Origin: an uncultured Bacteroidales bacterium
Lineage (GTDB): Bacteria; Bacteroidota; Bacteroidia; Bacteroidales; Paludibacteraceae
Length of the DNA: 64,000 nt
NCBI GenBank assembly: GCA_934728255.1
Contig: CAKVEC010000005.1
Location: forward strand, 8,419-72,418
Direction of reading: 5' to 3'
The stretch's first letter is position 1. Each line of letters begins with the position of its first letter. The position numbers were made by a program, and so were the translations under genes. The notes under the pieces are model-generated. The model made no database searches and was not told the origin of the DNA. It was given only the letters and a program-made list of their open reading frames with translations. Positions 5,158 to 45,813 of the stretch are shown piece after piece.

Positions 5158-5257
5158 TTCGTTGAAACAAAGAATAAAGGACAATGAACAAAGAATTAAA
5201 AGCGGGACAAAAGTCAATGCTTGTTTGGGTATTGATCTTTGTCCCGCTTTTTTCGTT

Positions 5258-6451: not shown

Positions 6452-6456
6452 ACTGA

Positions 6457-9756: not shown

Positions 9757-9782
9757 AAACAGTTGTTTTTGTGTGTATTAGA

Positions 9783-22917: not shown

Positions 22918-22920
22918 GCT

Positions 22921-24198: not shown

Positions 24199-24211
24199 AA
24201 ACAACCAAATT

Positions 24212-24883: not shown

Positions 24884-24925
24884 ACAATGCAGTGGAAAAA
24901 ATAATGGATAATTATATGATAATTA

Positions 24926-26422: not shown

Positions 26423-26423
26423 A

Positions 26424-27797: not shown

Positions 27798-27900
27798 TTT
27801 TTGTGCTGCCGTTTTTTGCATAGACATATTCTCCAAATTATGCATAATAAGCAATTCCTATACTTCATAATACAATTTACGGCAACGAGACGGCAACGAC

Positions 27901-27960
27901 ATACACCTTTATGCGGTGCTTTTATACACTTTATGCACTGTATATCTGCATAAAGTGTAT
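27901..27960. repeat. Three copies of ATACAC(C)TTTATGC(A): two direct, one inverted (14-bp perfect inverted repeat 27924-27937 / 27947-27960)
   Basis: Read directly in the 231-nt spacer between the PP2C gene and the second kinase operon. No T-run follows, so it does not look like a classic terminator. Confidence 0.7.
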
Positions 27961-28028
27961 GGATGTTGTTCTGATGTGGTTGTCCTTAAATAATAGTGAT
28001 TCAACTAAAACCGACTAACGATTAAATT

Positions 28029-29669: not shown

Positions 29670-29670
29670 T

Positions 29671-30819
29671 ATGAAACGACTAATTCTATTAGGTTGCTTA
29701 ATATGCACTTGTTCATTTTTTGTCTATGCTGATGAAGATTGTACGGGTGCGCTTCAAGAGGCAAAGTCCGCATACAATGCAGGAGATTATCAAAAAGCAA
29801 AAAGGTTATATGACTATGTAGTGTCAGAATGTGGGAACAACTATGGGAATGCTGCCGTTATGCTAAGGCAATGCGAAGAAATGCTAAACCCCAAGTTGTC
29901 TGTTAGTAGATCCTACATAACAATAGGCGCCTCGTCCGGTTCTACTACGTTGTCGGTTACAAGCAATCGTAATTGGGAACTGCGAAATACCAATTCAAAT
30001 ATGTTCTCGGTTTATAAAAACGGAAGCACAATCACTATCAACTACTATGCAAATTCAAGTTCCTCATCTCGTTCTGACTATTTTGATGTTGTAACTGCAG
30101 ACGGAAGCAAGTCCGTTCGAATAAACATTTCTCAGTCGGCAGCAAGTATTGCTTCTACATTGTCGGTTAACTCAACGAGTATTTCTAGTCCAGCAAGTGG
30201 CAAGACCGAATACATAATCGTCAATAGTAATACAAATTGGGAAATTCAGTATGCTACAGGCACGATGTATCGTACCACACGTTCTGGAAATATGGTAAAG
30301 GTCGAAATCTTTGCCAATTCTGCGACAAGTAGTAGAACAGATTATTTTTATATCAAGACTGCGGACGGAAGCAAAACACAGAAAATTTCTTTGACACAAT
30401 ATGGAAAAACATCGGCATCTTCTTATAATGCGGCTGCTCGTATTAAGAAAGTTTGGATAGAACATAATGTGTATCAGAATTCTATAAAAGGCATGAAAAT
30501 TCATGTGCGATTTGATGTCGATAATATGAGAAATTGTACAGGACGAGTTGTTGCATACTTCTATCATCAAGGAGGAACTGCGTTGAGAGACGCTAATAAT
30601 AGTTATAGAACGACTTCTGGTGAAATCTCTTGTGGTGAAAGTTTTACGCCTTCATACATTAATACTGCATATAACGATTTCGTTCTTTTTATGCCGTACA
30701 GTGAATTACATTGTACAAGTTATAGTCGCTATAACTTACGTTTTTTTGTTAGTATATTTAATGATCATAGTAGAGAAATGACACAATCAAATTGGGTTCA
30801 GTTTACCTTAACTAATTAA
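29671..30819 (+). CDS. Secreted protein with two BACON-like domains and an unknown C-terminal domain
   Basis: Signal peptide 'MKRLILLGCLICTCSFFVYA'. The repeats are 'LSVSRSYITIGASSGSTTLSVTSNRNWEL...RSDYFDVVTADGSKSVRINISQ' and 'LSVNSTSISSPASGKTEYIIVNSNTNWEI...RTDYFYIKTADGSKTQKISLTQ'. The ATG lies 1 nt after the kinase stop (TAATATG). Confidence 0.65.
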   Translation: MKRLILLGCLICTCSFFVYADEDCTGALQEAKSAYNAGDYQKAKRLYDYVVSECGNNYGNAAVMLRQCEEMLNPKLSVSRSYITIGASSGSTTLSVTSNRNWELRNTNSNMFSVYKNGSTITINYYANSSSSSRSDYFDVVTADGSKSVRINISQSAASIASTLSVNSTSISSPASGKTEYIIVNSNTNWEIQYATGTMYRTTRSGNMVKVEIFANSATSSRTDYFYIKTADGSKTQKISLTQYGKTSASSYNAAARIKKVWIEHNVYQNSIKGMKIHVRFDVDNMRNCTGRVVAYFYHQGGTALRDANNSYRTTSGEISCGESFTPSYINTAYNDFVLFMPYSELHCTSYSRYNLRFFVSIFNDHSREMTQSNWVQFTLTN

Positions 30820-30831
30820 TATGTGAAATCT

Positions 30832-32319
30832 ATGCAACTAATCGAAAATACGTATTTTGGCGAGAATAATCGCTATTATTTGGAGAAACTACTCGGTAGA
30901 GGTGGGTTTTCAGAAGTTTGGTTGGTGAAAGATAATATCACCAACTTGGAATTAGCCCTAAAGGTGTATGCCCCCGGCACAGGAATGGATGAAGACGGCT
31001 TACAGACTTTCAGTCAAGAGTTGGCGCGGGTCTATAATCTCAATCATACAAATCTTCTCAAACCTCAGCATGTAGATTCATATCAAGGTATGCCTTACCT
31101 GACTATGTCCTATTGCCCGCAGGGGTCTTTGGTTAGGCGGATAGGTAAGATGTCAGAACAGGAGGTTCGCAAAGTTATTCACGATGTGGCTGCAGGATTG
31201 GCGTATCTGCACGAGCGTGATATTATCCACCAAGACATCAAACCCGACAATATATTGATAGATAATGCGGGCAATTATGTCATTACTGATTTCGGTATTT
31301 CAACCCGCGCTCGCAGCACGTTGCGCAAGAGTGTAGCAGCCTCTTCTGCTAATTCGGGTGGTACAATTGCGTATATGGGACCGGAGCGTTTCGGCAAAGA
31401 ACCTGCACCTATCAAAGCCAGCGATATATGGTCGTTGGGCGCAATGTGCTATGAACTGATGACCGGCGATACACCATTTGGCGAACATGGAGGACTTATT
31501 CAGAAATCAGGGGCAGAAATTCCTAATATAGGGGGTAACTACTCAGACGAACTTAAACAGATAGTGGAGCAGATGTTATCCCTCAATCCGTGGGACAGAC
31601 CTACGGCTGCGGCTTTGGAGAAAGGAGATTTCTCAACTACAGTACCGGAGCGTAATCGTCCTACGGTGGCAAAAACTACGTCTCGTTCTACACAACCAAC
31701 CGTTAATTCACCAACAGACAATGGAATAATAAAAAACAATTCTACACAAAACAATGTAGGAACAACAAATAAGAAAAAGAAAATTGTGTGGACTATCGTA
31801 TGCTTCCTATTATTAGTCGCATTAGCAGTAGGTATCAGTATATGTGTGAACAATAATAATGCGCAAACCTATAGTACTGCACAACAGACACAACCCGTTT
31901 CTACTATTTCAAAACCAGTTGTAGAAGAATATAGGTATGAAACCATAGATAAAAATAGGGTACAGACTTTACTTACCAATATATCCCGTTGCTCGAGTAG
32001 AGGAGGCAATTATAGTTTGTTGAGCGATTATTATACATACGAGATAAATCCATATGTTAGAGTGGGAGTAAACAGATATAATTATGATATAGGTGAAAAA
32101 ATCAAAGCCTACGCGGAGAAATTCCCTAAATACGAAATGTCAGACCCTTATAATTTCTCATACCTAAATACTTCATTTCCATTAACGGTCAAATGTGATG
32201 TATTGGTGGATTGGATTAATACACAAGGTATTTCCCGAAAGGCTATTCTTCATAAAACTTACTATATAACATCTGATTACAAAGTATCCGGATTTACTGA
32301 CGAACAAGTAAATCTGTAA
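30832..32319 (+). CDS. Hanks-type Ser/Thr kinase (non-RD), paralogue of 28029..29669, with TM and divergent C-terminal domain
   Basis: It shares long identical runs with the upstream kinase: 'LLGRGGFSEVWL', 'ALKVYAPGTGMD', 'LNHTNLLKPQHVD', 'IHDVAAGLAYLH', 'HQDIKPDNILID' and 'STRARSTLRKSV'. The start MQLIEN parallels MQLQEN. The TM is 'IVWTIVCFLLLVALAVGISICV'. Confidence 0.85.
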   Translation: MQLIENTYFGENNRYYLEKLLGRGGFSEVWLVKDNITNLELALKVYAPGTGMDEDGLQTFSQELARVYNLNHTNLLKPQHVDSYQGMPYLTMSYCPQGSLVRRIGKMSEQEVRKVIHDVAAGLAYLHERDIIHQDIKPDNILIDNAGNYVITDFGISTRARSTLRKSVAASSANSGGTIAYMGPERFGKEPAPIKASDIWSLGAMCYELMTGDTPFGEHGGLIQKSGAEIPNIGGNYSDELKQIVEQMLSLNPWDRPTAAALEKGDFSTTVPERNRPTVAKTTSRSTQPTVNSPTDNGIIKNNSTQNNVGTTNKKKKIVWTIVCFLLLVALAVGISICVNNNNAQTYSTAQQTQPVSTISKPVVEEYRYETIDKNRVQTLLTNISRCSSRGGNYSLLSDYYTYEINPYVRVGVNRYNYDIGEKIKAYAEKFPKYEMSDPYNFSYLNTSFPLTVKCDVLVDWINTQGISRKAILHKTYYITSDYKVSGFTDEQVNL

Positions 32320-32344
32320 AATATAGTTGAGAGTCTATAACATT

Positions 32345-33991
32345 ATGAACCGATTAACAGTTCTTTTGGCGGCACTCTGCATGTCAGTGATGTCGCTCGT
32401 GGCGCAGCAGACTGCGCAAATCAGACAATTGATGGATAGTGCACAATATGCGGAAGCGGTGCAACTATGTACCATCGAGTTACAACAACACCCCAAGGAT
32501 GGTATGCTGTACCGCTGTCGTGCCATTGCCAACATCATGCAGGAGCAATATGGTATGGCGTTGCAGGATATAGATATGCTTCTCAAGTATGCCAAGACAT
32601 CCGGTATATCCGTCAGCGAAGTATATGAACTGCGTGGTGCCACATATATGTATGCGGGTGAGTTGCAGAAAGCGTTGGACGACTACACCACCGCCATCAA
32701 GAAAGACAAGAAGAACGCCGATGCGTATGCCGCACGGGGTGAGTTGTACTACCATAAGGAGAACTACGCGGCAGCCCTTGCGGACTACAAGGCGGCAAGC
32801 AAATTAGTGCCAGCCGATGACTCGTACCTCGTGGAGATAGCACGCTGTACCCTGCAATTGGGCAAATATGATGAGGCGCGTGCCATGCTCACTTCTATCA
32901 CAGTGCTCTATCCCTACAACGCCGAGGCGTGGCGACTGTCCGCAGGATTGGCGATGTTGAGCGGCGAGACTACCAAGTTCATAGACCAGTATATCCGTTA
33001 CCTCAATCTCAGTTACAACGAGACAGGGCGGTTTGGCGATACCGATATACTGATTGCCGCCGCCGATACCGAGTATCCGTACCTGCTCCATGCCGTGTCC
33101 GAACAGATAAGCAACCTAACGGATTATCCGCAGTTGTTCTATATGGGTGTCCGTGTCCGTATCTATATAGAGAAAGGGTACTATGCCGATGCTATCAAAG
33201 ACTTGGATATGATGGAGCGGATAGAGGGAACCGCCGACCCGTTTGTGCTTGCCAATCGCGCAGATTGCTACCAAAACCTGTATCAGTACCACAAGGCGAT
33301 AGCCGATTATGATGCTATGTTGGCATTGGATGCCACCTATTCGTATGGTTATATCAGTCGTGGTTTGTGCTATGCCGAGTTGGGGCAATACGACAAGGCT
33401 ATCGGTGACTTTACGTACGTTATACAAAATGATGTCAATTATGCCTATTATGCCTACTATCGCAGAGGGTGGGTGTATGAGTTCCAAAAGGATACTACGG
33501 CGGCACTATCCGACTACTCGCGCGGAATAGAGTTGGAAGATGACTATAATTATTTGCATCTGATGCGTGGCGAGATATATTGGAATATGGGAGATACCCT
33601 GCAAGCCAAATCCGATTTTGAAAGAATACTCGAATTGGATACGGTAGCCCGTGCAGGGTCGTGCCGCCAATATGCATTGTACTTCTTGGGACAAGAAAAT
33701 GAGGCTGTGCAGTGGATGCAAAGTATGATAGAGAGTGCATCTGACAAGGCCGGGTGTTACTATGATGCCGCTTGTCTGTATGCCCGTATGAACAAGACAG
33801 AAGAGGCGTTGGCGGCTTTCGACAAGTGCCTGTCGTTGGGGTATAAACGGTTCAAACATATTGAAGTGGATGATGACCTTGACAATATCCGCAACCTGCC
33901 GCGCTTCACTGAGATACTCAACAAGTACCGCAAACAAGAGGTACAGAGCAAGTTCGATTTGCTGAAAGGGGCTGATACGGATATGAAATAG
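32345..33991 (+). CDS. Secreted TPR-repeat protein
   Basis: Signal peptide 'MNRLTVLLAALCMSVMSLVAQQ', then many 34-aa repeats with the A/Y/G pattern, for example 'AYAARGELYYHKENYAAALADYKAA'. Confidence 0.8.
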   Translation: MNRLTVLLAALCMSVMSLVAQQTAQIRQLMDSAQYAEAVQLCTIELQQHPKDGMLYRCRAIANIMQEQYGMALQDIDMLLKYAKTSGISVSEVYELRGATYMYAGELQKALDDYTTAIKKDKKNADAYAARGELYYHKENYAAALADYKAASKLVPADDSYLVEIARCTLQLGKYDEARAMLTSITVLYPYNAEAWRLSAGLAMLSGETTKFIDQYIRYLNLSYNETGRFGDTDILIAAADTEYPYLLHAVSEQISNLTDYPQLFYMGVRVRIYIEKGYYADAIKDLDMMERIEGTADPFVLANRADCYQNLYQYHKAIADYDAMLALDATYSYGYISRGLCYAELGQYDKAIGDFTYVIQNDVNYAYYAYYRRGWVYEFQKDTTAALSDYSRGIELEDDYNYLHLMRGEIYWNMGDTLQAKSDFERILELDTVARAGSCRQYALYFLGQENEAVQWMQSMIESASDKAGCYYDAACLYARMNKTEEALAAFDKCLSLGYKRFKHIEVDDDLDNIRNLPRFTEILNKYRKQEVQSKFDLLKGADTDMK

Positions 33992-35043: not shown

Positions 35044-35710
35044 TGCCATTATTGCTGATGGCAAACAACTATTGCAGACCATACACACGTTATTTGATAA
35101 ACAATGTAAAATATCTGCAATTGTCAATGAACGCATTTTGGGTATCACACTTATACCCGAAGCATCTCTATGGCTACATTGTGCCACGAATATGGGTATT
35201 GGTGATATGTCGTATTTTTATGTTCGTAAACAAGGAGAGGAACTATCGAAAGAATGTTTTTATCATAACAATAATATATGGTCTTATGTCATTATTCCGA
35301 AAATTAACCCGCTGCAAACCATATGGCGCATCTACCTGTTAGACAAGGCAGATACGCAATTACCTGCATTTTGGCATGGAGCATATGGTCAAGCCAAACT
35401 CATTTTTGAATCAAACGATATGGGCTCCATACGCCCAATTGACAGGATGCATGACCGGCATCTCATCTTGTTAGAAATGACCAAAGTGTTTGCTAATAGG
35501 GATTGGAGCGTCATCGCTCCTATAGAAGAATTGCAGCCCCGGGTAACCGCCATTGACGACCGCACATACCAAGTGATTTGTTGCTATTGGAACGATTGGG
35601 AGGGACTTGTCCGCGAAACAGCCACCTATGTTGTTGAGGATACTACGATTACGGCAAAGGATAGCATACAAGAAGTGCTATATCCATATCATTGCGGGAT
35701 TATGTTCTGA
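35024..35710 (+). CDS. Hypothetical protein
   Basis: 228-aa ORF that overlaps the previous ORF by 20 nt. No motif recognised. Confidence 0.45.
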   Translation: MKAYHSDAIIADGKQLLQTIHTLFDKQCKISAIVNERILGITLIPEASLWLHCATNMGIGDMSYFYVRKQGEELSKECFYHNNNIWSYVIIPKINPLQTIWRIYLLDKADTQLPAFWHGAYGQAKLIFESNDMGSIRPIDRMHDRHLILLEMTKVFANRDWSVIAPIEELQPRVTAIDDRTYQVICCYWNDWEGLVRETATYVVEDTTITAKDSIQEVLYPYHCGIMF

Positions 35711-35852
35711 TTAGGTCTTTTAATTTGCAAGTGGCGTAGCGTATAACAGATTGGTGAGTACGCAGACAAAGCACTCAATCAAAATGCAAAAGATATGGAT
35801 TGGCAGTGTTAATTGCGGTGCTAATTGTCGTATTAATAATATGTTTGGCAAT

Positions 35853-36854
35853 ATGAAACTTTCAATCATTCACATTGTCCTTGGGGCAATCATTTTGGCG
35901 GGCATGAGTGCCTGCGCACGGCGGGAGCGTGTGGCTACAGAGCACCCTGTTGCCATTGTGGATTCGTTGCAACAGATAGTGGCGGAAGAGGTGCAAGCAC
36001 GTGTTAATCGCACTGAAGCCGAGTGGGGTGTCGGCATAATGATTGACACACACAGCGGGACGGTGGTGGCGATGTACGATACCGATTCCACACTTGTGCA
36101 TGCGCAGTCGGCATGGGAGTTGGGGAGTGTCGTCTCGCCATTGGCTCTGCTGGCGGCATATTCCGTAGAGCCACAGGGGTGGGATAGTGCTGTCGGGGTG
36201 TGCCGAAGTGGTTTTGACTATGCAGGACGTGTGTTTCGGGACGGACATGCGCGTGATGCAGTCTATTCGCTGTCCGATGCTATTGCTACGAGCAGCAAGG
36301 CAGCAGTTGTCCGATATATGCTTCGCGTGTTTGAGCAGCAGCCGGCATTACTGCCCGAGATACTTGCCAAGTGGGGCTTTGAGTTTGCAGCGCAGGATAG
36401 TGCGTGCGATGCTATGACCGAGACACTGGAGTATGCCACGGGCTACCATTGTACCATCACGCCTGGGCAACTCGCCTATCTGTATTCGTGTGTGGCTACG
36501 GGGCAGCACTTGCATGTTCCTGCCAGCGGGTTGGACTCTATCCGGTTGGGGTTGCACCGCGTGGTGTGGGATAATGATTTAGGCACGGCGAGCATCAATC
36601 CGTGGGATATGCGGAAGGCGCAAAGCGACAAGGTGCAGATTGCAGGCAAGACAGGGGCGGCGCAAATCTCCATGGGCGGGAACTATGCCGGTAATCACCA
36701 CCGTTTGTCTTTTGTCGGTTATTTCCCCGAAGCCAATCCGCAGTATACGTGTCTGGTTATTCTCAATAATCCCAAGTATTACGGCTATTACGAAGCAGGT
36801 GCCGATTGCGGCATTCCTGTCCGTCGTATTGCAGAAAAGATATCTACAGAATAG
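35853..36854 (+). CDS. Stand-alone PBP transpeptidase-fold lipoprotein with degenerate catalytic motifs
   Basis: Lipobox 'LAGMSAC'. It aligns to class B PBP motifs: 'GVGIMIDTHSGTVVAMYD', 'ELGSVVSP' (where ..GSxxKP is expected), 'ATSSKAAV' (where SxN is expected), 'AGKTGAAQ' (KTG retained) and 'SFVGYFPEANP'. Confidence 0.7.
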   Translation: MKLSIIHIVLGAIILAGMSACARRERVATEHPVAIVDSLQQIVAEEVQARVNRTEAEWGVGIMIDTHSGTVVAMYDTDSTLVHAQSAWELGSVVSPLALLAAYSVEPQGWDSAVGVCRSGFDYAGRVFRDGHARDAVYSLSDAIATSSKAAVVRYMLRVFEQQPALLPEILAKWGFEFAAQDSACDAMTETLEYATGYHCTITPGQLAYLYSCVATGQHLHVPASGLDSIRLGLHRVVWDNDLGTASINPWDMRKAQSDKVQIAGKTGAAQISMGGNYAGNHHRLSFVGYFPEANPQYTCLVILNNPKYYGYYEAGADCGIPVRRIAEKISTE

Positions 36855-36911
36855 AATTATCCATCCGCATTTTTATGAAAAATAGCAAATACAACAAAAC
36901 TATACAGAATT

Positions 36912-37637
36912 ATGAAGAGGAAAAAGAAATATACGAAAAACAGGAGAAAGTACCACCAATTGCCTGCAATCCATAGGAAAAAACAGATTATTCCTATCGG
37001 TACCTCTGTGCAAGAATCGGTTACGGCTATAATATATCAAAGCGAATTGGATTATATCTCGCGCTGCATAATGGATTGCCCTCGGATAGAAACCGGTGGA
37101 CAATTATTTGGTTTCTACACAATGAAAGGAACTCCGGTGGTATGCTATGCGCTCGGGCCGGGATCGAATGCCAATCATCAGATTACATTCTTTAATCAGG
37201 ATATCCCCTATCTGCAGTCTAACGGAACGATCTTGGCAAAAGAGTTTGCTTTGCAGCATATCGGAGAATGGCACTCGCATCATAGTTTGGGATTGGATCA
37301 TCCCAGCAGTCATGATTCGCACACGATGATATCTGCTATCAATACACATCATCTGGGGACAATGCTCCTCTGTATAGGGGTATGCGATGCCGAAGGTGCC
37401 ACCATAAACGGCTTTCTGTATAGCGAGGGGCAAATTAATTATCCACAAGTAAACTGGATGATAAAAGCGCAAGAAAGTCCCTATCGCAAGATAGCCGACG
37501 AGCGATTGATTCGCTCTGTCGTTCATCCTATAACTACTATTCCTAAACTGAAAAAGATGCGAATTGCTACGATTACATTGGCTACAGGGCAGGATAATAA
37601 ATACTTGTTACGTGCATATACCGATTTACAACTATGA
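36912..37637 (+). CDS. JAB/MPN (JAMM) metallopeptidase
   Basis: 'ETGGQLFG' supplies the Glu and 'EWHSHHSLGLDHPSSHD' is the HxH...S..D JAMM signature. Confidence 0.8.
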   Translation: MKRKKKYTKNRRKYHQLPAIHRKKQIIPIGTSVQESVTAIIYQSELDYISRCIMDCPRIETGGQLFGFYTMKGTPVVCYALGPGSNANHQITFFNQDIPYLQSNGTILAKEFALQHIGEWHSHHSLGLDHPSSHDSHTMISAINTHHLGTMLLCIGVCDAEGATINGFLYSEGQINYPQVNWMIKAQESPYRKIADERLIRSVVHPITTIPKLKKMRIATITLATGQDNKYLLRAYTDLQL

Positions 37638-38062
37638 TGACAAAGCAACGATTACAAGCCGAAAAGACTGTACTTGAAAAATACTTGAAACCGAATACAT
37701 ATCGGTTCATGGATATGAATACTGGGAACCCGTATATAGTTATGGCTGTTATGACCAATTCGGGAAAGGTTTACACTATCCGGATTATGTTGAGAGAATT
37801 TCCTAATAGTGTGCCTTCGGTTCAAGTGATTACTCCGATTCGAACCAAGCGAGGTCGTGCGATGAATATGCCGGACGGAAGTATGCATGTATTAGGGCTT
37901 GAAGACGGACATACGCTGATATGTCATTATGGTCCCCTATCATGGACACCCAATGTGTCTTTATTCAAGGTCTATATGAAATGCCGCCTATGGTTCGAGA
38001 TGTATGAGGAACATCTGCGAACCGGTGCTCCGATAGATACATTTTTACCTCATCAAGACTAA
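37634..38062 (+). CDS. E2 (UBC)-like protein
   Basis: The start overlaps the JAB stop (ATGA). 'EFPNSVPSVQVITPI', 'SMHVLG' and 'GHTLICHYGPLSWTPNVSL' follow the E2 layout (PxxPP-like strand, His, catalytic Cys, WxP). Confidence 0.65.
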   Translation: MMTKQRLQAEKTVLEKYLKPNTYRFMDMNTGNPYIVMAVMTNSGKVYTIRIMLREFPNSVPSVQVITPIRTKRGRAMNMPDGSMHVLGLEDGHTLICHYGPLSWTPNVSLFKVYMKCRLWFEMYEEHLRTGAPIDTFLPHQD

Positions 38063-38086
38063 TTTTATAAATCTAAAAAAAAGACA

Positions 38087-38266
38087 ATGGAAAAGAAAAT
38101 GTCACCACTGGCACAAGCCGTTCAGGAGGCACAACGCCCCCGTCCAACAATTGATTTGGTTTACAATTCTGACACAGGTGTGTTCTCGGAAACAGCAGCA
38201 GGAAGTGTTACGGAAGGTCTGCCCGTTACAGAAATCACTAAAGGAGGATTCGCATGTCGGAACTAA
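38087..38266 (+). CDS. 59-aa mini-ORF with near-C-terminal Gly-Gly, candidate modifier/precursor peptide (not in supplied ORF track)
   Basis: My translation is MEKKMSPLAQAVQEAQRPRPTIDLVYNSDTGVFSETAAGSVTEGLPVTEITKGGFACRN*. Its last 13 nt overlap the E1-like start at 38254. It shares a motif block with the N-terminus of ORF 39200. Confidence 0.45.
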   Translation: MEKKMSPLAQAVQEAQRPRPTIDLVYNSDTGVFSETAAGSVTEGLPVTEITKGGFACRN

Positions 38267-39183
38267 CAGAAAAGAAATATCCTTCGCGCGAGGAGTTTTA
38301 TTCTCGTGCAAAGGGTATCCTTGAAGTAGATATTTTGCGAAATAAGCGTGTGGCTATCATCGGGCTGGGGAGTTTCGGATCGCATATCGCAGTGGAGTTG
38401 GTAAAAGCAGGTGTGGAAACATTCCACCTGTTTGATTTTGATACGATAGAGGTGCACAATCTGGCTCGTCATACGGCTTCCGTCCATGACATCGGGCGGC
38501 TGAAAACAGATGTGATGAAGGATACTATATTGGGTAAGAATCCATATGCAACGGTGCATTTGTACCCGATAGATATTCATCTCAATCCTGGGCCGTTAAC
38601 CGCTTTATTGAAGGCGCAATTGATAGACCTTATTATATGTGCGACCGACAACAACTCCAGCCGGTACATTTTAGCCCAACTAGCAAGTGAGTACAATGTT
38701 ACTTGTATCTATGGGCGTGCTATCACGCGAGCAGAGGGAGGAGATGTCTTCATACAGCGTCCTGGAGAAGCCTGCTACTGCTGCTTGGTGGGCAATGATT
38801 GGTTTGATGCTGCAGACGAGGAGATTAGTGATGAAAACTCTGCGCGTAGAGATGGACGTATTCCAGCATACGCATCGGCAGAAGATGCCGATGTAATGGT
38901 ACAAGTGGGGTTGTCATCGGACATTATGCCTATCTGCAATATGATGGTCAAGTTGGCACTGATTGAACTATCCAGAGGACTCGAATCCGGTTTGCAGGAG
39001 TTGGAGAAAGAATTGCGGTTCAACTATTATATGTGGGCCAATCGGCGGGAACGGCGTCATAAGAACTGGGCTGCGTTCGGTGAAAGTGGCAGTTTGCCCA
39101 CAATTCTTCGATGGTATGGAGCACAAATCTCTAAGAAAGAGCATTGTGCAGTATGTTCGACTTCTATAGAATTGGAAATATAG
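38254..39183 (+). CDS. E1-like ThiF/MoeB-family adenylating enzyme
   Basis: 'FYSRAKGIL', 'RVAIIGLGSFGSHIAVELVKAGV', 'FDFDTIEVHNLARH', 'ICATDNNSSR' and 'ACYCCL'. Confidence 0.85.
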   Translation: MSELTEKKYPSREEFYSRAKGILEVDILRNKRVAIIGLGSFGSHIAVELVKAGVETFHLFDFDTIEVHNLARHTASVHDIGRLKTDVMKDTILGKNPYATVHLYPIDIHLNPGPLTALLKAQLIDLIICATDNNSSRYILAQLASEYNVTCIYGRAITRAEGGDVFIQRPGEACYCCLVGNDWFDAADEEISDENSARRDGRIPAYASAEDADVMVQVGLSSDIMPICNMMVKLALIELSRGLESGLQELEKELRFNYYMWANRRERRHKNWAAFGESGSLPTILRWYGAQISKKEHCAVCSTSIELEI

Positions 39184-39199
39184 GAAAGATGGAAGTGAA

Positions 39200-39622
39200 A
39201 TGAATGATTTGAATGACATTGTTTTTAATCCCGAGACCGGGCTGTTTGAGAGCAAAACCAATATCACAGCCCACCTTACGGAGTGCCAAATACAGGGGGG
39301 TAGCAGAAGCCGTCGTATGATAGACCCCGCACGTGCTGCCTTGAAACCCGTCATAGTGGATTTTCGGGTAGAAGGCGGATATGAGCATAAGGTCGGATCT
39401 GAGGTATGTGTGCGTTGGCGTGTGGCAAATGCGCAGAAAATCATTATTCATTTCCACAATCACCGCGCATTGGAATATGATATGCAGGGTACTTTGCGGT
39501 TTGTTATGCCTGATGAGGATTGCAAGGTACGCTTGGTTGCAACGAATCAGGACGTAAAAACCCAAAGTACTATTTCCTTGATATCTCGTCGTCTAACCAT
39601 CTTCGACCGTTTATTCAGGTGA
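39200..39622 (+). CDS. Hypothetical protein: N-terminal GG-terminated module paralogous to the mini-ORF, plus a beta-rich C-terminal domain
   Basis: 'NDIVFNPETGLFES...LTECQIQGG' parallels 'IDLVYNSDTGVFSE...VTEITKGG'. The remainder ('KPVIVDFRVEGG...VCVRWRV...KIIIHF...CKVRLVATN') looks like an Ig-like sandwich, which is an inference. Confidence 0.5.
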   Translation: MNDLNDIVFNPETGLFESKTNITAHLTECQIQGGSRSRRMIDPARAALKPVIVDFRVEGGYEHKVGSEVCVRWRVANAQKIIIHFHNHRALEYDMQGTLRFVMPDEDCKVRLVATNQDVKTQSTISLISRRLTIFDRLFR

Positions 39623-39643
39623 TAAAATCCTTATAACACCAAT

Positions 39644-39665
39644 TACGTAGAAAAGACGTAGAAAG
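39644..39665 (+). repeat. Two units of TACGTAGAAAG-family 11-mer
   Basis: 'tacgtagaaaagacgtagaaag', read directly about 20 nt after the stop of ORF 39200. Confidence 0.75.
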
Positions 39666-39749
39666 AATGGGTATTACGTGTTTAGCACAATGTACTATGT
39701 ATTTACCGTAGTCGTCAGTGTGAGGACAACTGCAGAATAGATTATTATT

Positions 39750-42700
39750 ATGGAACCAACAAATACCTCCCATACCGTCCAAACGGCAAACGCTCAAAAC
39801 AGAGTGAACTATTGGGAACGGAAACTTTTGGATTTGACCAAGAGTAATGCACTCATCAATATACGATATGGAAATACTTGTATTGCATTGACAAATGAGG
39901 CAACCGAAGAAATATATGCAGAACTGACAGACGGAGGTAATATGCCTCTCCTGTCCTCCTGCAATACTTCTACACACGGCTTGCAAACCGCATTGGAAGA
40001 CAAAGAACTCGCTCAAAATGCGAAAGAACTGATGCGAACGGCCCAAAGCAATTTGGAAGAGATTGGCAATGCGCAACTGTTTGTAGTGATGGGAATGTTA
40101 CAATACATAGACAATCCTAACCCATTTCAACCTTCTGCCGCCATAGACTCTCATGTGGCACCCGTGTTGCTGCTACCCGTTAAGATTACACGGCAACGTA
40201 TAACCGGAGTGTACTACATATCTGCAATGGGAGACGAACCGTGTGTAAACGTTACGCTCATAGAACTGCTCAAGCAACAACATGAACGCAACTTATCTTC
40301 GCTTGTCGCCAATACAGATACCACGCCTGACTACAGGAAAGTAATGGAGACTTTTCAGGAGTTGGCAGCAAGCAAAACCGACTGGCATTTCTATTCAGGT
40401 ATGTGCGTAGGGATATTCTCGTTTGCCAAGTTTGTGATGTGGAGTGATATCCATACCAACTCCGAGCGTATGCTGAAATCGTCGTTAGTGGAAAGCCTTG
40501 TAGAGAAACGAAAAGCGGATTCGATGGCAATACCCGACAGTGATGCGCGGACAATGGACAAGGAAACAAAGCCCATAGAGTTGGCATTGCCTTTAGACGC
40601 CGATAGTTCGCAAATAGAGGCTGTAGCAGATGCTTCCGCAGGAAAAAGTTTCTTGCTCTATGGTCCTCCGGGGACAGGCAAAAGCCAGACAATTACCAAC
40701 ATCATTGCCAATGCCATTTACCACAAACAGCAAGTGCTTTTTGTAGCACAGAAGCGTGCTGCGCTGGAAGTGGTACAGGAGCGTTTACAGCAAATAGGTA
40801 TTGATTCGTTTTGCTTGGAACTGCACTCTAACAAAGCCACCAAAACGTATCTGATCAACCAGTTGGAGCAGGTGATGAGCAGCGCATACAGCAATGATTT
40901 TGAACGGGATTTTCATAATGTTTCCGAGCAACTGTTCGCGCGTCGTAAACAGTTGCTGCAATATATAGAAGCATTGAATGCTCCGCATAGCATGCACGGA
41001 GATGAATACTCTTTAGCCGATTGCATTGAGCAGTATTGTGCCATTGATGCTGCAGGGCTATTGTCGTTTGATTTTGACCAACCGACACTCTCACGCACTA
41101 CCAACGCAGAGTTGGATAGTATTGCCAACACCTTGCACGAGATGCAAACCATTCGTCCTACATTTGCAAGCATCGAGAAGCATCCATTACGCACATTGCT
41201 TCCACGTGACGGACGTATTAGTGCGATTGAGAATATATGTAACAAGTTGCAGGAACTGCGGCAAGACATAGTGGAGATTTCACTCAACCAAAACGGGTTG
41301 CGCAAATGGTTGCGCTTGTCGGGCTTGCAACAACGTTACCATCTGCATGAGATTGAATTGCAAGATTTAGCCACCATTGTTTGGGACACCTCGGCATTGT
41401 ATGAAGACAAACAAAAAGACATTAGCCAATGGTTAGCCCATCGTGCGGAAATGAAAGAGTGGAGTCTGTATAGTGTCAGGTGGAATCGTGTGACGGATTT
41501 GGGATATCCACAATTGGCAGATGCTATGGAGGCAGAGACTGATACAGTCGTTGTGCAATCTTTGCGCCGGGCTGTTTATCAACAACGTGCAATGGATATT
41601 ATTGATTCGGATAACACCCTAACCATGTTCAACGGGAAAGTGTTTGAGGAGATAATCGCAGAATATCGTCGGTTGTTCAGCGAATTTCAATCACTGACGA
41701 AACAAATTCTGCTACTACGGCTGCAAAACAATGTGCGCGATACGCTATTAAGTCCAAATCCTATAATCCAAAGTTCGTTAACAATCATTCGCCGATGGAT
41801 CAAACAACACGGGCGCGGTATGAGTATTCGGCATTTGTTTGCAGAACATGGCGAAGTATTGCGTACTCTCTGTCCGTGCCTGCTGATGTCTCCAATCTCT
41901 GTGGCACAATACCTGCCTATACGCTCTTCCTTATTCGATATGGTGCTGTTTGACGAGGCATCACAGATCCCTACTTCGGAAGCAGTCGGAGCCATTGCAC
42001 GTGGCAAGGCTGTTGTGATTGTGGGGGACCCGAAGCAGATGCCGCCGACCACTTTTTTCCAAACGCAATTATTTTCGGAAGAAGATATAATCAATGGCGA
42101 TATGGAATCGGTGCTTGACGACTGTATTACATTGGGAATGCCAGACCATTACCTAAACTATCATTATCGTTCACGTCATGAATCGTTGATTGCTTTCAGT
42201 AATCATTACTACTATGACGACAAATTAGTAACTTTCCCTAGCGCAGACAACAGAATTTCGCATTTGCATTATTGCTATGTAGAGAGCGTTTATGATTATA
42301 GTGCTACCCGTACTAACCGCTTGGAAGCAGAGGCGTTGGTTCTGGAAGTGATCAGGCGATTGGGTAACCCTGAACAGAGTCGTTGCTCAATGGGTATCAT
42401 TGCATTCAGTAAGGTTCAGCAAGACTTGATTGAAGAACTGCTTTCGGAGCAACTATCACGCCGACATAATTTGGAAAAACGGGCTTTTGGTGAGAATAGG
42501 GAACCTCTGTTTGTTAAGAATTTGGAGAATGTGCAAGGTGATGAACGCGATGTTATCTTCTTGTCGGTAGGTTATGGACCGGACAAGGACGGGAAAATTA
42601 GTATGAATTTCGGACCGCTGAATAACGCCGGTGGTGAGAGGCGTCTGAATGTAGCCGTTACTCGTGCCAGACAGGAGATGTTGGTCTTCACCGGAATGCA

Positions 42701-43154
42701 TTCGGAAGATATCGACTTGTCTAAGTCACAGGCACTTGGTGTGGAAGGACTGAAGAATTTTCTATACTACGCTGAGCATCATGAATTGCCTCAAGATATT
42801 GCTGCTCCGGGACAGAACTATCCCCTACATCCTATTGCTGTGCAATTGGCAGATGTGTTGCGTAACGAAGGCTATCGTGTGGATACAGGAGTCGGGCAAA
42901 GCGATTTTCGTATAGATGTTGCTGTTGTCAATCCCGCATGTCCTGATATGTACCTATTGGGCATACAGATAGACGGGTGGCGCTACTATCAAACACCCAC
43001 TATGCGAGATCGTGCCTTGGTGCAACCTGATGTATTGCAGGGGCTTGGTTGGAAAATTGTACACATTTGGCAAGAAGATTATTTCCATTCCCCGCAAATT
43101 GTCATACGACAACTACTGAATATCCTGACACAAACGACTAATAACCAACAATAA
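39750..43154 (+). CDS. Superfamily 1 (DNA2/Upf1-like) helicase with C-terminal PD-(D/E)xK endonuclease-like domain
   Basis: 1134 aa with 'LLYGPPGTGKSQTITNIIA', 'VLFDEASQIP', 'VIVGDPKQMPPT', 'HYRSRHESLIAFSN', 'NVQGDERDVIFLSVGY' and 'RLNVAVTRAR'. The C-terminal 'DFRIDVAVV...LGIQIDGWRYY...RDRALVQPDVLQGLGWKIVHIW' is Vsr/DUF559-like. The N-terminus is possibly DUF4011, from memory. Confidence 0.85.
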   Translation: MEPTNTSHTVQTANAQNRVNYWERKLLDLTKSNALINIRYGNTCIALTNEATEEIYAELTDGGNMPLLSSCNTSTHGLQTALEDKELAQNAKELMRTAQSNLEEIGNAQLFVVMGMLQYIDNPNPFQPSAAIDSHVAPVLLLPVKITRQRITGVYYISAMGDEPCVNVTLIELLKQQHERNLSSLVANTDTTPDYRKVMETFQELAASKTDWHFYSGMCVGIFSFAKFVMWSDIHTNSERMLKSSLVESLVEKRKADSMAIPDSDARTMDKETKPIELALPLDADSSQIEAVADASAGKSFLLYGPPGTGKSQTITNIIANAIYHKQQVLFVAQKRAALEVVQERLQQIGIDSFCLELHSNKATKTYLINQLEQVMSSAYSNDFERDFHNVSEQLFARRKQLLQYIEALNAPHSMHGDEYSLADCIEQYCAIDAAGLLSFDFDQPTLSRTTNAELDSIANTLHEMQTIRPTFASIEKHPLRTLLPRDGRISAIENICNKLQELRQDIVEISLNQNGLRKWLRLSGLQQRYHLHEIELQDLATIVWDTSALYEDKQKDISQWLAHRAEMKEWSLYSVRWNRVTDLGYPQLADAMEAETDTVVVQSLRRAVYQQRAMDIIDSDNTLTMFNGKVFEEIIAEYRRLFSEFQSLTKQILLLRLQNNVRDTLLSPNPIIQSSLTIIRRWIKQHGRGMSIRHLFAEHGEVLRTLCPCLLMSPISVAQYLPIRSSLFDMVLFDEASQIPTSEAVGAIARGKAVVIVGDPKQMPPTTFFQTQLFSEEDIINGDMESVLDDCITLGMPDHYLNYHYRSRHESLIAFSNHYYYDDKLVTFPSADNRISHLHYCYVESVYDYSATRTNRLEAEALVLEVIRRLGNPEQSRCSMGIIAFSKVQQDLIEELLSEQLSRRHNLEKRAFGENREPLFVKNLENVQGDERDVIFLSVGYGPDKDGKISMNFGPLNNAGGERRLNVAVTRARQEMLVFTGMHSEDIDLSKSQALGVEGLKNFLYYAEHHELPQDIAAPGQNYPLHPIAVQLADVLRNEGYRVDTGVGQSDFRIDVAVVNPACPDMYLLGIQIDGWRYYQTPTMRDRALVQPDVLQGLGWKIVHIWQEDYFHSPQIVIRQLLNILTQTTNNQQ

Positions 43155-43161
43155 CAAAACT

Positions 43162-44580
43162 ATGACACGAGAAGAACAATTGAAATTATGCTCTGTCTGC
43201 ACCCATCGTCAGATGGATATGCATAAAGGTATGTTGTGCGGACTGACTCAAAATGCCGCAAATTTTGAAGGCGAATGCCCTAACTTTGAGCAAGATGAGA
43301 AAGAATTCCAAAAACAGCAGCAGATTCAGCAAGAGATTATGAGTGATGAAGACCATACTGTTGGTGGTTGGTTGGCAATTTTTTTATGGCTCGGCATTGG
43401 AGGCGGTGCCTTGGCGAGTATAGTGACTACATGTTTGTCATTTAGTGATTTGTTGTTATCGACATGGCTTGTCGTTGCACAATTGGTTATTTTGCTTTGT
43501 TTGTGCACTATCGCAGTTAGCACAATCGTAGCCTTTTATAAGCGTCAACCCAATGCCAAAGCATTGGCATATACATATATTGCAACAATTGCAATAGATA
43601 GCGTCTTTGCTATTGCAATGTACTTCGCAATACCCGATGCTCAGGAAAGCAATCTTGTACACTCTATTCGTTCCATATTGTGGGGCGTGATATGGGGTAC
43701 ATATCTTGCCAGTTCAACACGTGTGGAGAATATCGTTCCGAAGCCACGCACATGGCAGATATTTGAGAAAATCTTGGCAGGTGTCATTGTGAGTATGTAT
43801 ATATTGATGGCTACTGTTACTATAGATATGCACAACAATGAAAATAGTATATTCTACAACCCGCGCCAAGTGGTTAAGACAATATTGCAAGAAATTAACA
43901 AAGACCTTCCATATCAGGATATTGACGGCGTCATTTCGCAGCGTCTGTTTTTGCAAAAAGATACAATTGTGTATCCGTACAAATTGACACAAACGGATAT
44001 CAAAGATTGTGTTGTAGAGGATTTGCAACTTACAGGTATGCACACAAAACAATCAATACTTCAAGAAGTTGCATTACAATCACCGGATGCCACCCTATCG
44101 GGGCATGAGTATTTCTTCGAGCATAACTACAGCGTGTCTTTCCGCTATTATGACAAATGGAATACTCTGTTGTATTCAGTCGCAATTACCCCTGAAGATT
44201 ACACGAATGCGCTTGCTGCTGGTAATCAATTCCGATGTGACGAAGCAGATTTTCAAAAGGCAGAAGATATTGTCAAGACATTGTTGCCCATTGCATATCT
44301 TGGAGAAGGTGCCGAGTTGACAGATATCCGTCATACACATGATAACCTATACTACGTGATTCGATTTAAGGATATGTATTTCGCAGACGTGTGCCAAATA
44401 GATAAGTCTTACTTCCGACAGACTATATTGTCTCATTTCGCGGAGTTGGAAGATGCTGTGGTCTCAATGGCGGAAATGAATCGGATGAACATTGTGTTTT
44501 CGTTGTGCGGTATAGACTCCGATAGAACTATAGACATAGTCATTACCCCGCAAGATTATATACAGACTGTCGAAAAATAA
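43162..44580 (+). CDS. Membrane protein: Cys-rich N-terminal knuckle, multi-pass TM core, unknown C-terminal domain
   Basis: 'CSVCTHRQ...CGL...GECPNF', then the TM stretch 'GGWLAIFLWLGIGGGALASIV...'. A 7-nt gap separates it from the helicase gene. Confidence 0.55.
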   Translation: MTREEQLKLCSVCTHRQMDMHKGMLCGLTQNAANFEGECPNFEQDEKEFQKQQQIQQEIMSDEDHTVGGWLAIFLWLGIGGGALASIVTTCLSFSDLLLSTWLVVAQLVILLCLCTIAVSTIVAFYKRQPNAKALAYTYIATIAIDSVFAIAMYFAIPDAQESNLVHSIRSILWGVIWGTYLASSTRVENIVPKPRTWQIFEKILAGVIVSMYILMATVTIDMHNNENSIFYNPRQVVKTILQEINKDLPYQDIDGVISQRLFLQKDTIVYPYKLTQTDIKDCVVEDLQLTGMHTKQSILQEVALQSPDATLSGHEYFFEHNYSVSFRYYDKWNTLLYSVAITPEDYTNALAAGNQFRCDEADFQKAEDIVKTLLPIAYLGEGAELTDIRHTHDNLYYVIRFKDMYFADVCQIDKSYFRQTILSHFAELEDAVVSMAEMNRMNIVFSLCGIDSDRTIDIVITPQDYIQTVEK

Positions 44581-44678
44581 TGATTGTATGCAGCAAATAT
44601 GTTGAAGGTTTGTTTAGGTCTGATGATTTTCAAGATCCTGAATATGAATATACAATTCCCATACCTCATAATACCGAT

Positions 44679-44711
44679 TACGTAGAAAGGACGTAGAAAG
44701 GACGTAGAAAG
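44679..44711 (+). repeat. Three tandem 11-bp units (tacgtagaaag gacgtagaaag gacgtagaaag)
   Basis: Read directly. It is followed by the hairpin 'ggctt..aagcc' and 'tgttttta'. Confidence 0.85.
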
Positions 44712-44970
44712 AATTGGCTTTTCTCTATAGGATAAGCCTGTTTTTATGCACTTTATTCACTCTGTACTTTGCATAAACTGTATAAAATAGATGCTAAATA
44801 CAAAACGCAAGTGAATTGAGTGTAAACAGAGTGCCACAAAATAACAAGTCTCCAGTGCCATACCGGCAGAGAATTAGCATAATTTTTGCATACGATCAAC
44901 AGAATAAATAAAAACTTTGTATATATCGCAAAGTATATTTTGTTGACTTTGTAAAAATGCTTCATATAAT

Positions 44971-45813
44971 ATGAAAACGGGACTGGTGCTGGAAGGCGGC
45001 GGAATGCGCGGAATTTATACCTGCGGAGTGTTGGATATCATGATGGACAAGGGCTTTGAACCCGATGTGCTGTGCGGTACATCAGCGGGTGCGCTTTTTG
45101 GTGTCAACCTTCCGTCCAAGCAACGTGGCAGAGCCTTTGATTACAACTATCGTTACTGCGACAATCCCGACTATGTCTCCATTCGTTCCCTCATTCGCAC
45201 GGGTAATATGGTGAATGTGGATTTTTCGTACAACCGTATTCCCAACGAGTTGGCTCCGTTTGACGAAGTCGCATACGAAGCCTCGAAAACCCAAGTCTTC
45301 GCTACCGTAACCAACGTAAAAACAGGCAAAGCCGAATACAAGCATATCGAAAATTGTATGACGCAAATAGACTGGCTCCGAGCATCGGGTACGTTGCCGT
45401 TTATTTCCCATAGGGTGCATATCGGTGAGAATGAGTACTTGGATGGCGGATTGGTGGACAATATCCCGCTGGATAAAGCGTTTGAGGAGGGCTGCGACAA
45501 GGTGATTGTGGTGCTGACGCGCCCCATTGAGTTCCGTCTGAACGAGCACATGTATTTGCTCAGCAAGATATTTTATCCGCAAGAAAAGAACCTGCAACAG
45601 GCATTGCGTGTGCGCAGTGCGAACTACAACAAACGTATGCAGCAGGTGCGCCAACTGAAGGAGGAAGGCAAGATTTTTGTATTCTCGCCCGAAACATTGT
45701 TGCCCGTGCGCCGTTTGGAGCGCAATCCGCTCCACCTCAAACAAATCTACCACCTCGGTCTCCGTGATGCCACCCGCGAATGGAGTAAACTGGAAAACTA
45801 TCTGCAAAAATAA
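44971..45813 (+). CDS. Patatin-like phospholipase
   Basis: 'LVLEGGGMRGIYTCGVLD' (oxyanion GGG.RG), 'GTSAGA' (GxSxG) and 'DGG' (the catalytic Asp motif). Confidence 0.85.
   Translation: MKTGLVLEGGGMRGIYTCGVLDIMMDKGFEPDVLCGTSAGALFGVNLPSKQRGRAFDYNYRYCDNPDYVSIRSLIRTGNMVNVDFSYNRIPNELAPFDEVAYEASKTQVFATVTNVKTGKAEYKHIENCMTQIDWLRASGTLPFISHRVHIGENEYLDGGLVDNIPLDKAFEEGCDKVIVVLTRPIEFRLNEHMYLLSKIFYPQEKNLQQALRVRSANYNKRMQQVRQLKEEGKIFVFSPETLLPVRRLERNPLHLKQIYHLGLRDATREWSKLENYLQK

Follow-up and report, generated by a model that had tools for sequence, protein, structure and literature searches.

Five classes of operon that bring together an E1, an E2 and a JAB protein were distinguished by Iyer et al. in 2006 (PMC1779556), and they are now known as 6A-MBL, type II CBASS (an anti-phage signalling system based on cyclic oligonucleotides; class 6b), type II and type I Bil (6c and 6d, respectively) and Bub (6e, or DUF6527) (PMC11601603, PMC11601596, PMC10557695). 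The subject of this report is a cassette with enzymes of the same three kinds in a contig of an uncultured Bacteroidales bacterium of the Paludibacteraceae (CAKVEC010000005.1), of which a stretch of 64,000 nucleotides, hereafter the window, was analysed. Between its E2-like gene and its E1 gene the cassette encodes a protein of 59 residues, here called mini, and an accessory gene, ORF E, follows E1. With a probability of roughly 0.6, we read the cassette as an E1/E2/JAB conjugation module with a dedicated peptide modifier of ~56 residues, mini, that does not adopt the ubiquitin fold; if so, it would form a branch, so far undescribed, among the ubiquitin-like systems of bacteria. Related loci were sampled by a scan of one genome per species, which yielded 64 loci encoding the E2, and their agreement goes well past what chance would give: all 64 keep JAB, E2, mini and E1 in synteny (JAB, E2 and E1 wherever the contig permits).

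In type II CBASS, Cap2 adenylates the disordered tail of a CD-NTase, and Cap3 cuts exactly past the last residue of that tail (10.1101/2022.03.31.486616). The cassette shares with type II CBASS a ThiF-type, probably homodimeric E1, a UBC-like E2 bearing a cysteine and a JAB isopeptidase, and it would also share a flexible substrate tail that is not a beta-grasp and ends in a small residue, exactly past which JAB is predicted to cut. It differs in that the CD-NTase, the cyclic-nucleotide effector and the Cap2 fusion of E2 to E1 are absent, in that the putative substrate is a dedicated peptide of ~56 residues, and in that Cap2 has a loop cysteine, C548, whereas the E1 of the cassette has no invariant loop cysteine; the C-terminal half of this E1 alone gave no usable PDB alignment from which a residue equivalent to C548 could be read. 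No cassette or flanking ORF of the window matched a cyclase or CD-NTase in PADLOC or Pfam, and in the related loci, from which 105 neighbour proteins were taken, none of the 25 most frequent Pfam families is a CD-NTase. The cassette is not a type II CBASS, since it has neither a CD-NTase nor an E2-E1 fusion.

Bil operons follow the order Ubl-E2-JAB-E1, where Ubl is a ubiquitin-like protein (PMC11601596, PMC10557695), and their E1, BilD, has tandem IAD-AAD domains with an inserted CYS domain (PMC11601596). Like Bil, which has an anti-phage role, the cassette has four separate genes for modifier, E2, JAB and E1, and JAB would pre-process the modifier. The modifier BilA, in contrast, consists of between one and three domains of the beta-grasp kind with Gly at the end, BilD combines several domains (IAD-AAD-CYS), and the order of the genes is JAB-E2-mini-E1 in the cassette. 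The other small ORFs of the cassette matched no Ubl family in Pfam. In the absence of a beta-grasp BilA and an IAD-AAD-CYS E1, and with a different gene order, the cassette is not a Bil system.

In Bub systems a JAB domain processes a Ubl fusion protein and the E1 uses a loop tyrosine (PMC11601596). The cassette appears to resemble Bub in its minimal, homodimer-type E1, in which the loop cysteine is absent and a loop tyrosine is conserved (Y370 of BubCD; Y206 here, a putative counterpart), and possibly also in the release of a modifier from a fusion protein by JAB. Bub systems differ from it in having beta-grasp Ubls, a cysteine-less E2 with Ser/His oxyester chemistry and a DUF6527 serine protease, BubE, and their fusions are of Ubl to E2 and of JAB to E1, whereas the fusion in the present family is of mini to E1. 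No ORF scanned matched DUF6527 at E <= 0.1, and the cassette is not a Bub system because it lacks a DUF6527 protein and its E2 retains the cysteine. The 6A-MBL class has a triple fusion of E2, E1 and JAB and a metallo-beta-lactamase (MBL) partner, in contrast to the separate genes here; JAB and E1 gave only partial matches to its NCBIfam cap2_3 model, NF058523 (27 and 57 bits, with a cut-off of 320), and the sole MBL gene of the window lies 12 kb from the cassette. With no triple fusion and no adjacent MBL, this class is excluded as well. In function the cassette would resemble Cap2/Cap3 in tail recognition and in cleavage past the last residue, and it appears to resemble Bub in its minimal E1; it belongs to neither.

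A preliminary description of this DNA had read the locus as an operon for ubiquitin-like conjugation that has a JAB peptidase and keeps E1 and E2 as separate proteins, with neither a CD-NTase nor a beta-grasp Ubl and with a gene order unlike that of Bil. That reading stands: Pfam, PADLOC, NCBIfam, Foldseek and hhalign gave no CD-NTase and no beta-grasp protein.

Enzymes of the cassette

The five ORFs of the cassette are tightly packed on the plus strand, as first described, and each peptide string quoted from them is found in the translations. The first gene (36912-37637) encodes a JAB/JAMM metallopeptidase of 241 residues, an assignment that agrees with the earlier one. PADLOC JAB models match the protein at up to 3.6e-14, the match to Pfam Prok-JAB lies below the cut-off of that model, and the NCBIfam Cap3 model (0.017) falls far under its own. 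The JAMM residues E60, H121, H123, S132 and D135 do not vary across an alignment of 59 JAB sequences, and the JAMM/MPN+ motif, E...HxH...S..D, reads as complete. The window JAB is a short form; most relatives add a C-terminal domain of ~90 residues, which has no match in PDB or Pfam and may be of an RWD- or UEV-like kind.

The stop codon of JAB and the start codon of the second gene (37634-38062) share the sequence ATGA, an overlap borne out by the sequence check. The product of this gene, 142 residues long, has homologues in 148 protein clusters, all of ~142 residues and none with a Pfam domain; it matches neither Pfam Prok-E2 nor UQ_con, and NCBIfam holds no curated model for it. Residues H85, C97 (in 'ICHYG'), W104-x-P106 and C117 are invariant in the family, C97 in all of 38 aligned sequences. 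The AlphaFold2 (AF2) model of the protein has a pLDDT of 94.3, and its top PDB matches in Foldseek are Ube2N, UbcH7, UBE2L6, the UBC-like domain of FANCL, Ube2W and RWD, with a probability of ~1, template-modelling scores of 0.48-0.55 and E-values of only ~1e-2. In a profile alignment to UBE2D2, C97 falls on the catalytic C85, 'SWTP' on 'QWSP' and 'FPxxxP' on 'YPFKPP'. The UBC/E2 layout suggested in the preliminary description is borne out by a predicted structure that matches UBC folds first and by the conservation of C97, and on this model we take the protein to be a divergent E2 of UBC fold that bears a cysteine of the catalytic type.

The fourth gene (38254-39183) encodes an E1 of 309 residues. 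A single ThiF domain occupies residues 27-234 (Pfam ThiF, 3.8e-30, 105 bits with a cut-off of 28), and the best PDB match is MoeB (1.7e-15), with MccB, UBA5, PaaA, Uba4 and Cap2 also among the matches. Alignment of 62 family members shows GLGSFG, D61, D63, R72, K84 and D132 to be invariant, as are the Zn-site cysteines C174, C177, C298 and C301. The protein, classed from the outset as a ThiF/MoeB/E1-like enzyme, therefore carries the sequence hallmarks of these adenylating enzymes (GxGxxG, catalytic Arg/Asp and CxxC...CxxC). The loop that follows the first CxxC (residues 178-223) is free of cysteine and includes Y206, conserved in 98%, and S208, conserved in 90%; C228 is conserved in 87%. Like the JAB, the window E1 is a short form, and it is without the N-terminal domain of ~100 residues that is found in most relatives and that matched nothing in PDB or Pfam. 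No rhodanese domain was found in E1 or the neighbouring proteins by Pfam scans.

mini and the shared hairpin

The third gene (38087-38266) encodes mini, the putative modifier precursor, and its 3' end is overlapped by the start of E1 over 13 nucleotides, such that the ATG of E1 (38254-38256) straddles the mini codons for Ala56 and Cys57. A single-sequence search with mini retrieved only 8 close relatives, and a profile was needed to recover the full family of 114 protein clusters (37-84 residues), in which a profile search found no Pfam domain; mini itself has no match in Pfam, NCBIfam or PADLOC. Family members share an N-terminal helix, a linker, a hairpin 'DLV[FY][ND]PxTGxFxxV' and a tail 'G..VTEMTxxGFA', and only the hairpin and the C-terminal GFA are strongly conserved. 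In the window the hairpin motif, 'LVYNSDTGVF', is encoded at 38156-38185, as a regex match, and is a putative docking element. A mini-type module lies between E2 and E1, or is fused to E1, in every locus (62 by regex and the remaining two by inspection), and E2 and E1 are separate genes in all 64.

The C-terminus of mini is suggestive of an activated peptide. The sequence [KEGD]GFA is present in 102 of the 114 family members; 48 of these 102 stop exactly at the Ala of GFA, and the others carry 1-11 unconserved residues beyond it. In the window, codons G54-F55-A56 (38246-38254) would specify the C-terminus of the mature modifier, as predicted from the conservation of [KEGD]GFA, and the CRN that follows (38255-38263), in the variable part past GFA, is a predicted removable extension. 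Such a pattern is, by analogy, the signature of the E1-activated C-termini that are pre-processed by JAB peptidases or other deubiquitinases (DUBs) in Bil, Bub and CBASS (PMC10557695, PMC11601596, 10.1101/2022.03.31.486616). In 17 loci mini is fused in frame ahead of E1, with junctions such as '...TEMTEGGFA|AEMAAD...'. GFA is internal in these fusions, so that proteolysis is needed to free the carboxylate before adenylation, and JAB presumably performs this cleavage. The fusion form also occurs in a cultured human-gut isolate, Segatella copri OF03-3 (L021, QSCI01000017.1), a possible experimental host.

The preliminary description had named mini as a candidate modifier ending in GG. The conserved C-terminus is instead [KEGD]-G-F-A, and the GG of 'KGGFACRN' is incidental because its first G occupies the variable position. 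GG was accordingly rejected as a maturation site: any of K, E, G and D can precede GFA, and GG is absent from the orthologues of ORF E.

The possibility that mini is a cryptic beta-grasp protein was also considered and found no support. An AF2 model built on an alignment of 73 sequences has a helix at residues 7-16 and hairpin strands at 22-27 and 32-37, and its tail is poorly ordered (pLDDT 67.8, pTM 0.36). A Foldseek search with this model gave a best E-value of 2.3 and nothing ubiquitin-like, and hhalign against ubiquitin and ThiS gave nothing; the order of secondary structure, a helix and then one hairpin, is unlike that of a beta-grasp.

Several loci depart from the simple layout of mini. 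Some of them have two or three mini-like genes in tandem, or longer proteins in which the hairpin motif is repeated; extra mini-like features occur at the mini genes of L009 (3027-3424), L014 (8438-8999), L006 (3463-4090), L039, L052 and L053, and the minis of Fibrobacter carry an additional N-terminal '...AGFAG' pseudo-tail before the normal module.

ORF E (39200-39622), which begins 16 nucleotides after the stop codon of E1, encodes an accessory protein of 140 residues with 15 homologues. Conservation covers 'D[IL]VFNPxTGLFE' at the N-terminus, a linker of basic character, a single beta-sandwich repeat of Ig-like type and, at the C-terminus, an amphipathic tail, and the repeat is present five to seven times in relatives of 450-560 residues. 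The N-terminus aligns with the mini profile (hhalign E = 2.8e-5), and the motif 'IVFNPETGLF' at residues 7-16 (39218-39247) is also a regex match. ORF E had been described as a GG-ending modifier fusion, which is not upheld: GG is lacking in the orthologues, and it is the beta-hairpin, ahead of the Ig-like domain of ORF E, that the protein has in common with mini. ORF E was also rejected as a second modifier precursor, as it consists of hairpin, Ig-like repeat and amphipathic tail and has no conserved small C-terminal residue.

Across the 64 loci and the window, the hairpin regex matched 88 of 972 ORFs, and every one of the 88 lies on the cassette strand and inside a cassette. Among the matches, 34 are proteins other than mini, mostly with the motif at residues 3-9, and they include Ig-repeat proteins, tail-anchored membrane proteins of 60-90 residues, proteins with multiple transmembrane segments and one transmembrane-SH3 protein. 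Six-frame translation of the window gave three matches, namely mini, ORF E and one loose match. The hairpin is, as far as these patterns go, a system-specific module common to the modifier and to partner proteins encoded in the same operon, and 'LV[FY]NPxTGxF' is probably a docking element read by one of the three enzymes. Its presence at the head of ORF E and of the membrane, SH3 and Ig-repeat proteins makes these the best candidates for targets or partners.

A family of cassettes and a proposed pathway

The 64 loci span at least six phyla, and nearly all come from gut or rumen samples. Carriers include Bacteroidales (Paludibacteraceae, Muribaculaceae and Prevotellaceae), Fibrobacter, Kiritimatiellae, Verrucomicrobia, Flexilinea (Chloroflexi), Butyricicoccaceae (Firmicutes) and Treponema. 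A phage origin was considered and set aside, as no related locus turned up in viral contigs. The five genes had been expected to be co-conserved, and this holds for JAB, E2, mini and E1, which are universal, but not for ORF E-type genes (family 3), a variable accessory present in 14 loci only. The window cassette is the minimal form, with a short JAB, a short E1 and an ORF E of a single repeat.

Additional genes are found in many of the related loci. In about half of the loci, small hairpin-headed membrane proteins or a ClpB-like AAA+ gene are added. The ClpB-like gene, which encodes a double-AAA+ protein (Pfam AAA_2, AAA_lid_9 and ClpB_D2-small; PADLOC PDC-M37B and DolB), directly follows E1 in ~30 loci, often with genes for an Ig-repeat hairpin protein and for a DUF4407 membrane protein next in line; none of these is present in the window. 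In L009 the ClpB-like gene lies after E1 within 4716-10112, and in L034, L054 and L059 its place is taken by a protein of 1245-1273 residues with three AAA modules. A reader of the Pup/Mpa kind was considered for the ClpB-like gene and rejected, as its presence showed no association with that of an N-terminal 'E-V-R-K-Q-G' helix in mini (Fisher p = 0.58).

The nearest outgroup homologues of the E2 have ~31% identity to it and are encoded on plasmids. On plasmid pBb323S2b of Bradyrhizobium barranii (L066, 5832-12202), genes for a JAB, an E2 and an E1 of 483 residues stand beside CD-NTase, Cap4 nuclease-SAVED and TIR genes, an arrangement that amounts to type II CBASS in which Cap2 is split. The CD-NTase ends in ...TFGA and is annotated at only 215 residues, possibly as a truncated product. 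The N-terminus of the Bradyrhizobium E1 was tried as a fused mini and rejected, its match to the mini profile being non-significant (E = 0.096). Another distant E2 homologue, on pREB3 of Acaryochloris (L065, 6051-7432), is a copy interrupted by an IS630 element. The simplest reading of the cassette family is that it derives from the Cap2/Cap3 lineage, with loss of the cyclase and use of a stand-alone tail peptide in its stead.

The pathway that we propose would start with JAB, which would trim the mini precursor past ...K-G-G-F-A56 and so remove Cys-Arg-Asn, and which in other loci would free mini from the mini-E1 fusion. The E1, probably as a Zn-site homodimer, would then adenylate the carboxylate of Ala56 in the tail 'VTEITKGGFA', as Cap2 does with the CD-NTase tail. 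The acyl group would move to Cys97 of E2, either directly or via the conserved Tyr206, as the E1 is without an invariant loop cysteine. E2 would pass mini to an amine on a target, from which JAB could remove it again, and the candidate targets or partners would be the hairpin-headed proteins, represented in the window by ORF E.

With regard to biological role, a function in conflict or against phages is most likely, and this is the least secure part of the interpretation. Such a role is plausible because of apparent descent from the CBASS lineage, the patchy distribution across phyla and the variable, effector-like accessory genes, and because a DolB-like AAA+ gene accompanies the cassette in some loci and a ProA/Hhe-like helicase and a patatin are encoded downstream of it in the window. 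The helicase gene (39750-43154) directly follows the cassette, with the patatin gene further on, and its product of 1134 residues (DUF4011, SF1 helicase and MTES_1575) is related to anti-phage ProA, Hhe and PDC-S37, although it scores under the NCBIfam cut-offs and is shorter than the models. The defence-island setting claimed in the preliminary description is in line with these two genes; the flanks of the related loci lend it less support.

Several points weigh against our interpretation. The AF2 model of mini is of low confidence, and a fold formed only on binding is not describable from it. A Treponema-type subgroup of minis ends in ...TQDYYQL rather than GFA. Sequence support for the E2 is weak (PADLOC E2 5e-4; Foldseek E ~1e-2; hhalign probability 2.4% against a single sequence). 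Adenylation of the C-terminal Ala, the thioester on C97 and the cleavage by JAB past GFA are all steps that we infer, and the hairpin-headed proteins are named as candidate targets or partners only. The link to defence is circumstantial and its evidence thin: the closest relatives, L001 and L061, do not have the helicase next to their cassettes, and five of seven large flanking genes sampled in related loci have no PADLOC match.

The first alternative to a conjugated modifier is that mini acts as a regulator or pseudo-substrate on the E1 or JAB site, in the manner of an antitoxin or autoinhibitor, and that the true substrate is the C-terminus of another protein, encoded elsewhere or brought in by a phage. 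The frequent fusion of mini to the N-terminus of E1 would suit an autoinhibitory module. Some loci have two to three tandem mini-like genes or pseudo-tails, and the related Bradyrhizobium operon has both a possible substrate, the CD-NTase, and an E1 with a long N-terminal extension. That extension, however, is the one without a significant match to the mini profile, and about half of minis end at a free GFA while the remaining extensions are short and variable, which is the signature of an activated C-terminus. Nor do the cassettes encode another protein that could be the substrate and ends in a small, conserved residue, the ORF E-type proteins ending in ...LFR or ...IFGK. We consider a purely regulatory mini unlikely.

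Activation of a peptide without tagging is a second alternative. JAB trimming of sulfur-carrier C-termini is established for QbsD and Mec, and in the systems that adenylate sulfur carriers or peptides (ThiF/ThiS, MoeB/MoaD, QbsC/D/E, CysO/Mec, MccB/MccA and PaaA) a ThiF-type E1 acts on a small C-terminus, in some cases after JAB has trimmed extra C-terminal residues. By this account the E1 would convert mini to a thiocarboxylate, as with ThiS, MoaD, QbsE and CysO, or to a modified or secreted peptide, as with MccB and PaaA; the E2-like protein would be an acyl or sulfur relay and JAB would trim as QbsD or Mec does. The best PDB matches of E1 (MoeB, MccB, UBA5, PaaA and Uba4) are compatible with it, as is a small peptide substrate with a conserved C-terminus and removable extra residues, and radical-SAM/SPASM genes flank the cassette in 5 loci. 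Those systems, in contrast, have no E2, their substrates end in GG or Asn, and they work with sulfurtransferase or biosynthetic partners, whereas a rhodanese or sulfurtransferase, an enzyme of cofactor or cysteine biosynthesis, an exporter and an immunity gene are all absent from the window cassette. A UBC-fold protein with an invariant cysteine is encoded in every locus, which is a hallmark of conjugation, and mini ends in GFA where sulfur carriers end in GG. The sharing of the hairpin with large Ig-repeat and membrane proteins is likewise unexplained by the leader of a ribosomally synthesized and post-translationally modified peptide (RiPP), and peptide activation is an improbable explanation of the cassette.

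The remaining alternative, that the cassette belongs to type II CBASS, Bil or Bub as an ordinary case whose Ubl or CD-NTase was overlooked, is suggested by the match of JAB and E1 to the CBASS Cap3 and Cap2 models in PADLOC and by the weak partial matches to the NCBIfam 6A-MBL model, and is very improbable in view of a cassette that lacks a cyclase, DUF6527, a beta-grasp protein and an MBL partner, keeps E1 and E2 separate in the order JAB-E2-mini-E1, with an E1 of a single 309-residue adenylation domain rather than IAD-AAD-CYS and an E2 that, unlike that of Bub, keeps its cysteine, and whose E2, mini and ORF E families have no model in Pfam, PADLOC or NCBIfam (June 2026). The E2 and mini family members are annotated as hypothetical proteins in their sources, and no description of the cassette family was found in the literature covered, which was incomplete, with many subscription papers outside it.

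Neighbouring genes and significance

The three genes directly downstream of the cassette (39750-45813, plus strand) encode the helicase protein, a Zn-ribbon protein of 472 residues with multiple transmembrane segments and the patatin-like phospholipase, and the latter two, like the helicase, are not kept beside the cassette in L001 or L061. Upstream, 57 nucleotides before JAB, a gene at 35751-36854 (plus strand) encodes a lipoprotein-like protein with a penicillin-binding protein (PBP) transpeptidase domain; it is probably a syntenic neighbour outside the system, since it is kept there only in L001 and L061. A signal-peptide TPR protein is encoded beside the cassette, upstream or downstream, in 11 loci; the window copy is at 32327-33991 (plus strand), and others are in L002, L003, L028, L033, L035-L037, L056 and L061. 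The family aligns over its full length at 22-33% identity (71% for L061), except for the truncated L035 copy, which aligns in part, and its members outside the window usually have a C-terminal retropepsin-like aspartyl protease domain. Further upstream, a co-directional signalling cluster (21814-32319, plus strand) encodes a Zn-ribbon/FHA protein, a Ser/Thr kinase-FHA protein, an FHA protein, an FHA protein with a trypsin-like protease, a PP2C phosphatase and two further Ser/Thr kinases. A promoter and terminator scan of 35600-40000 gave background levels only, with a sigma-70 model that is not apt for Bacteroidota.

The cassette also invites comparison with pupylation, which employs Pup, PafA/Dop and the AAA+ ATPase Mpa and in which Pup is linked via a side-chain carboxylate. 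The likeness is one of analogy only: in both cases the tag would be a peptide of ~60 residues that is largely unstructured, is not a beta-grasp and needs C-terminal maturation, and an AAA+ unfoldase gene is in the same operon in about half of the present loci. Pupylation differs in relying on a glutamine-synthetase-like ligase instead of E1 and E2; the window cassette, moreover, has no AAA+ gene, and a link to degradation is without support here.

To our knowledge, wherever a characterised E1/E2 pathway has a dedicated modifier, that modifier is a beta-grasp protein, as is the case for eukaryotic ubiquitin and Ubls, archaeal SAMP, Urm1, and bacterial Bil and Bub. We suggest, more tentatively than we read the cassette as a conjugation module, that this is the first E1/E2/JAB machinery with a dedicated, genome-encoded tag of ~56 residues that is not a beta-grasp, in effect a Pup-like tag handled by ubiquitin-like enzymes. 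With the same reserve, the tag may mature to Gly-Phe-Ala, dock via a hairpin shared with membrane and Ig-like partners and, in half of the lineages, be linked to a ClpB-like unfoldase. CBASS provides a precedent in that Cap2 activates the disordered tail of an enzyme, and a free-standing peptide tag would go one step beyond it. If true, E1/E2 chemistry would be detached from the ubiquitin fold in bacteria, and that fold would be dispensable for E1/E2 tagging. The small parts (142, 309 and 241 residues, plus the peptide) would offer a minimal system for the study of substrate recognition by E1, E2 and DUB enzymes. Finally, an operon family that is widespread, moves horizontally and has so far gone unannotated would join the candidate immune and conflict systems of gut and rumen bacteria, among them Bacteroidales, Fibrobacter and Kiritimatiellae, as a new conflict system.

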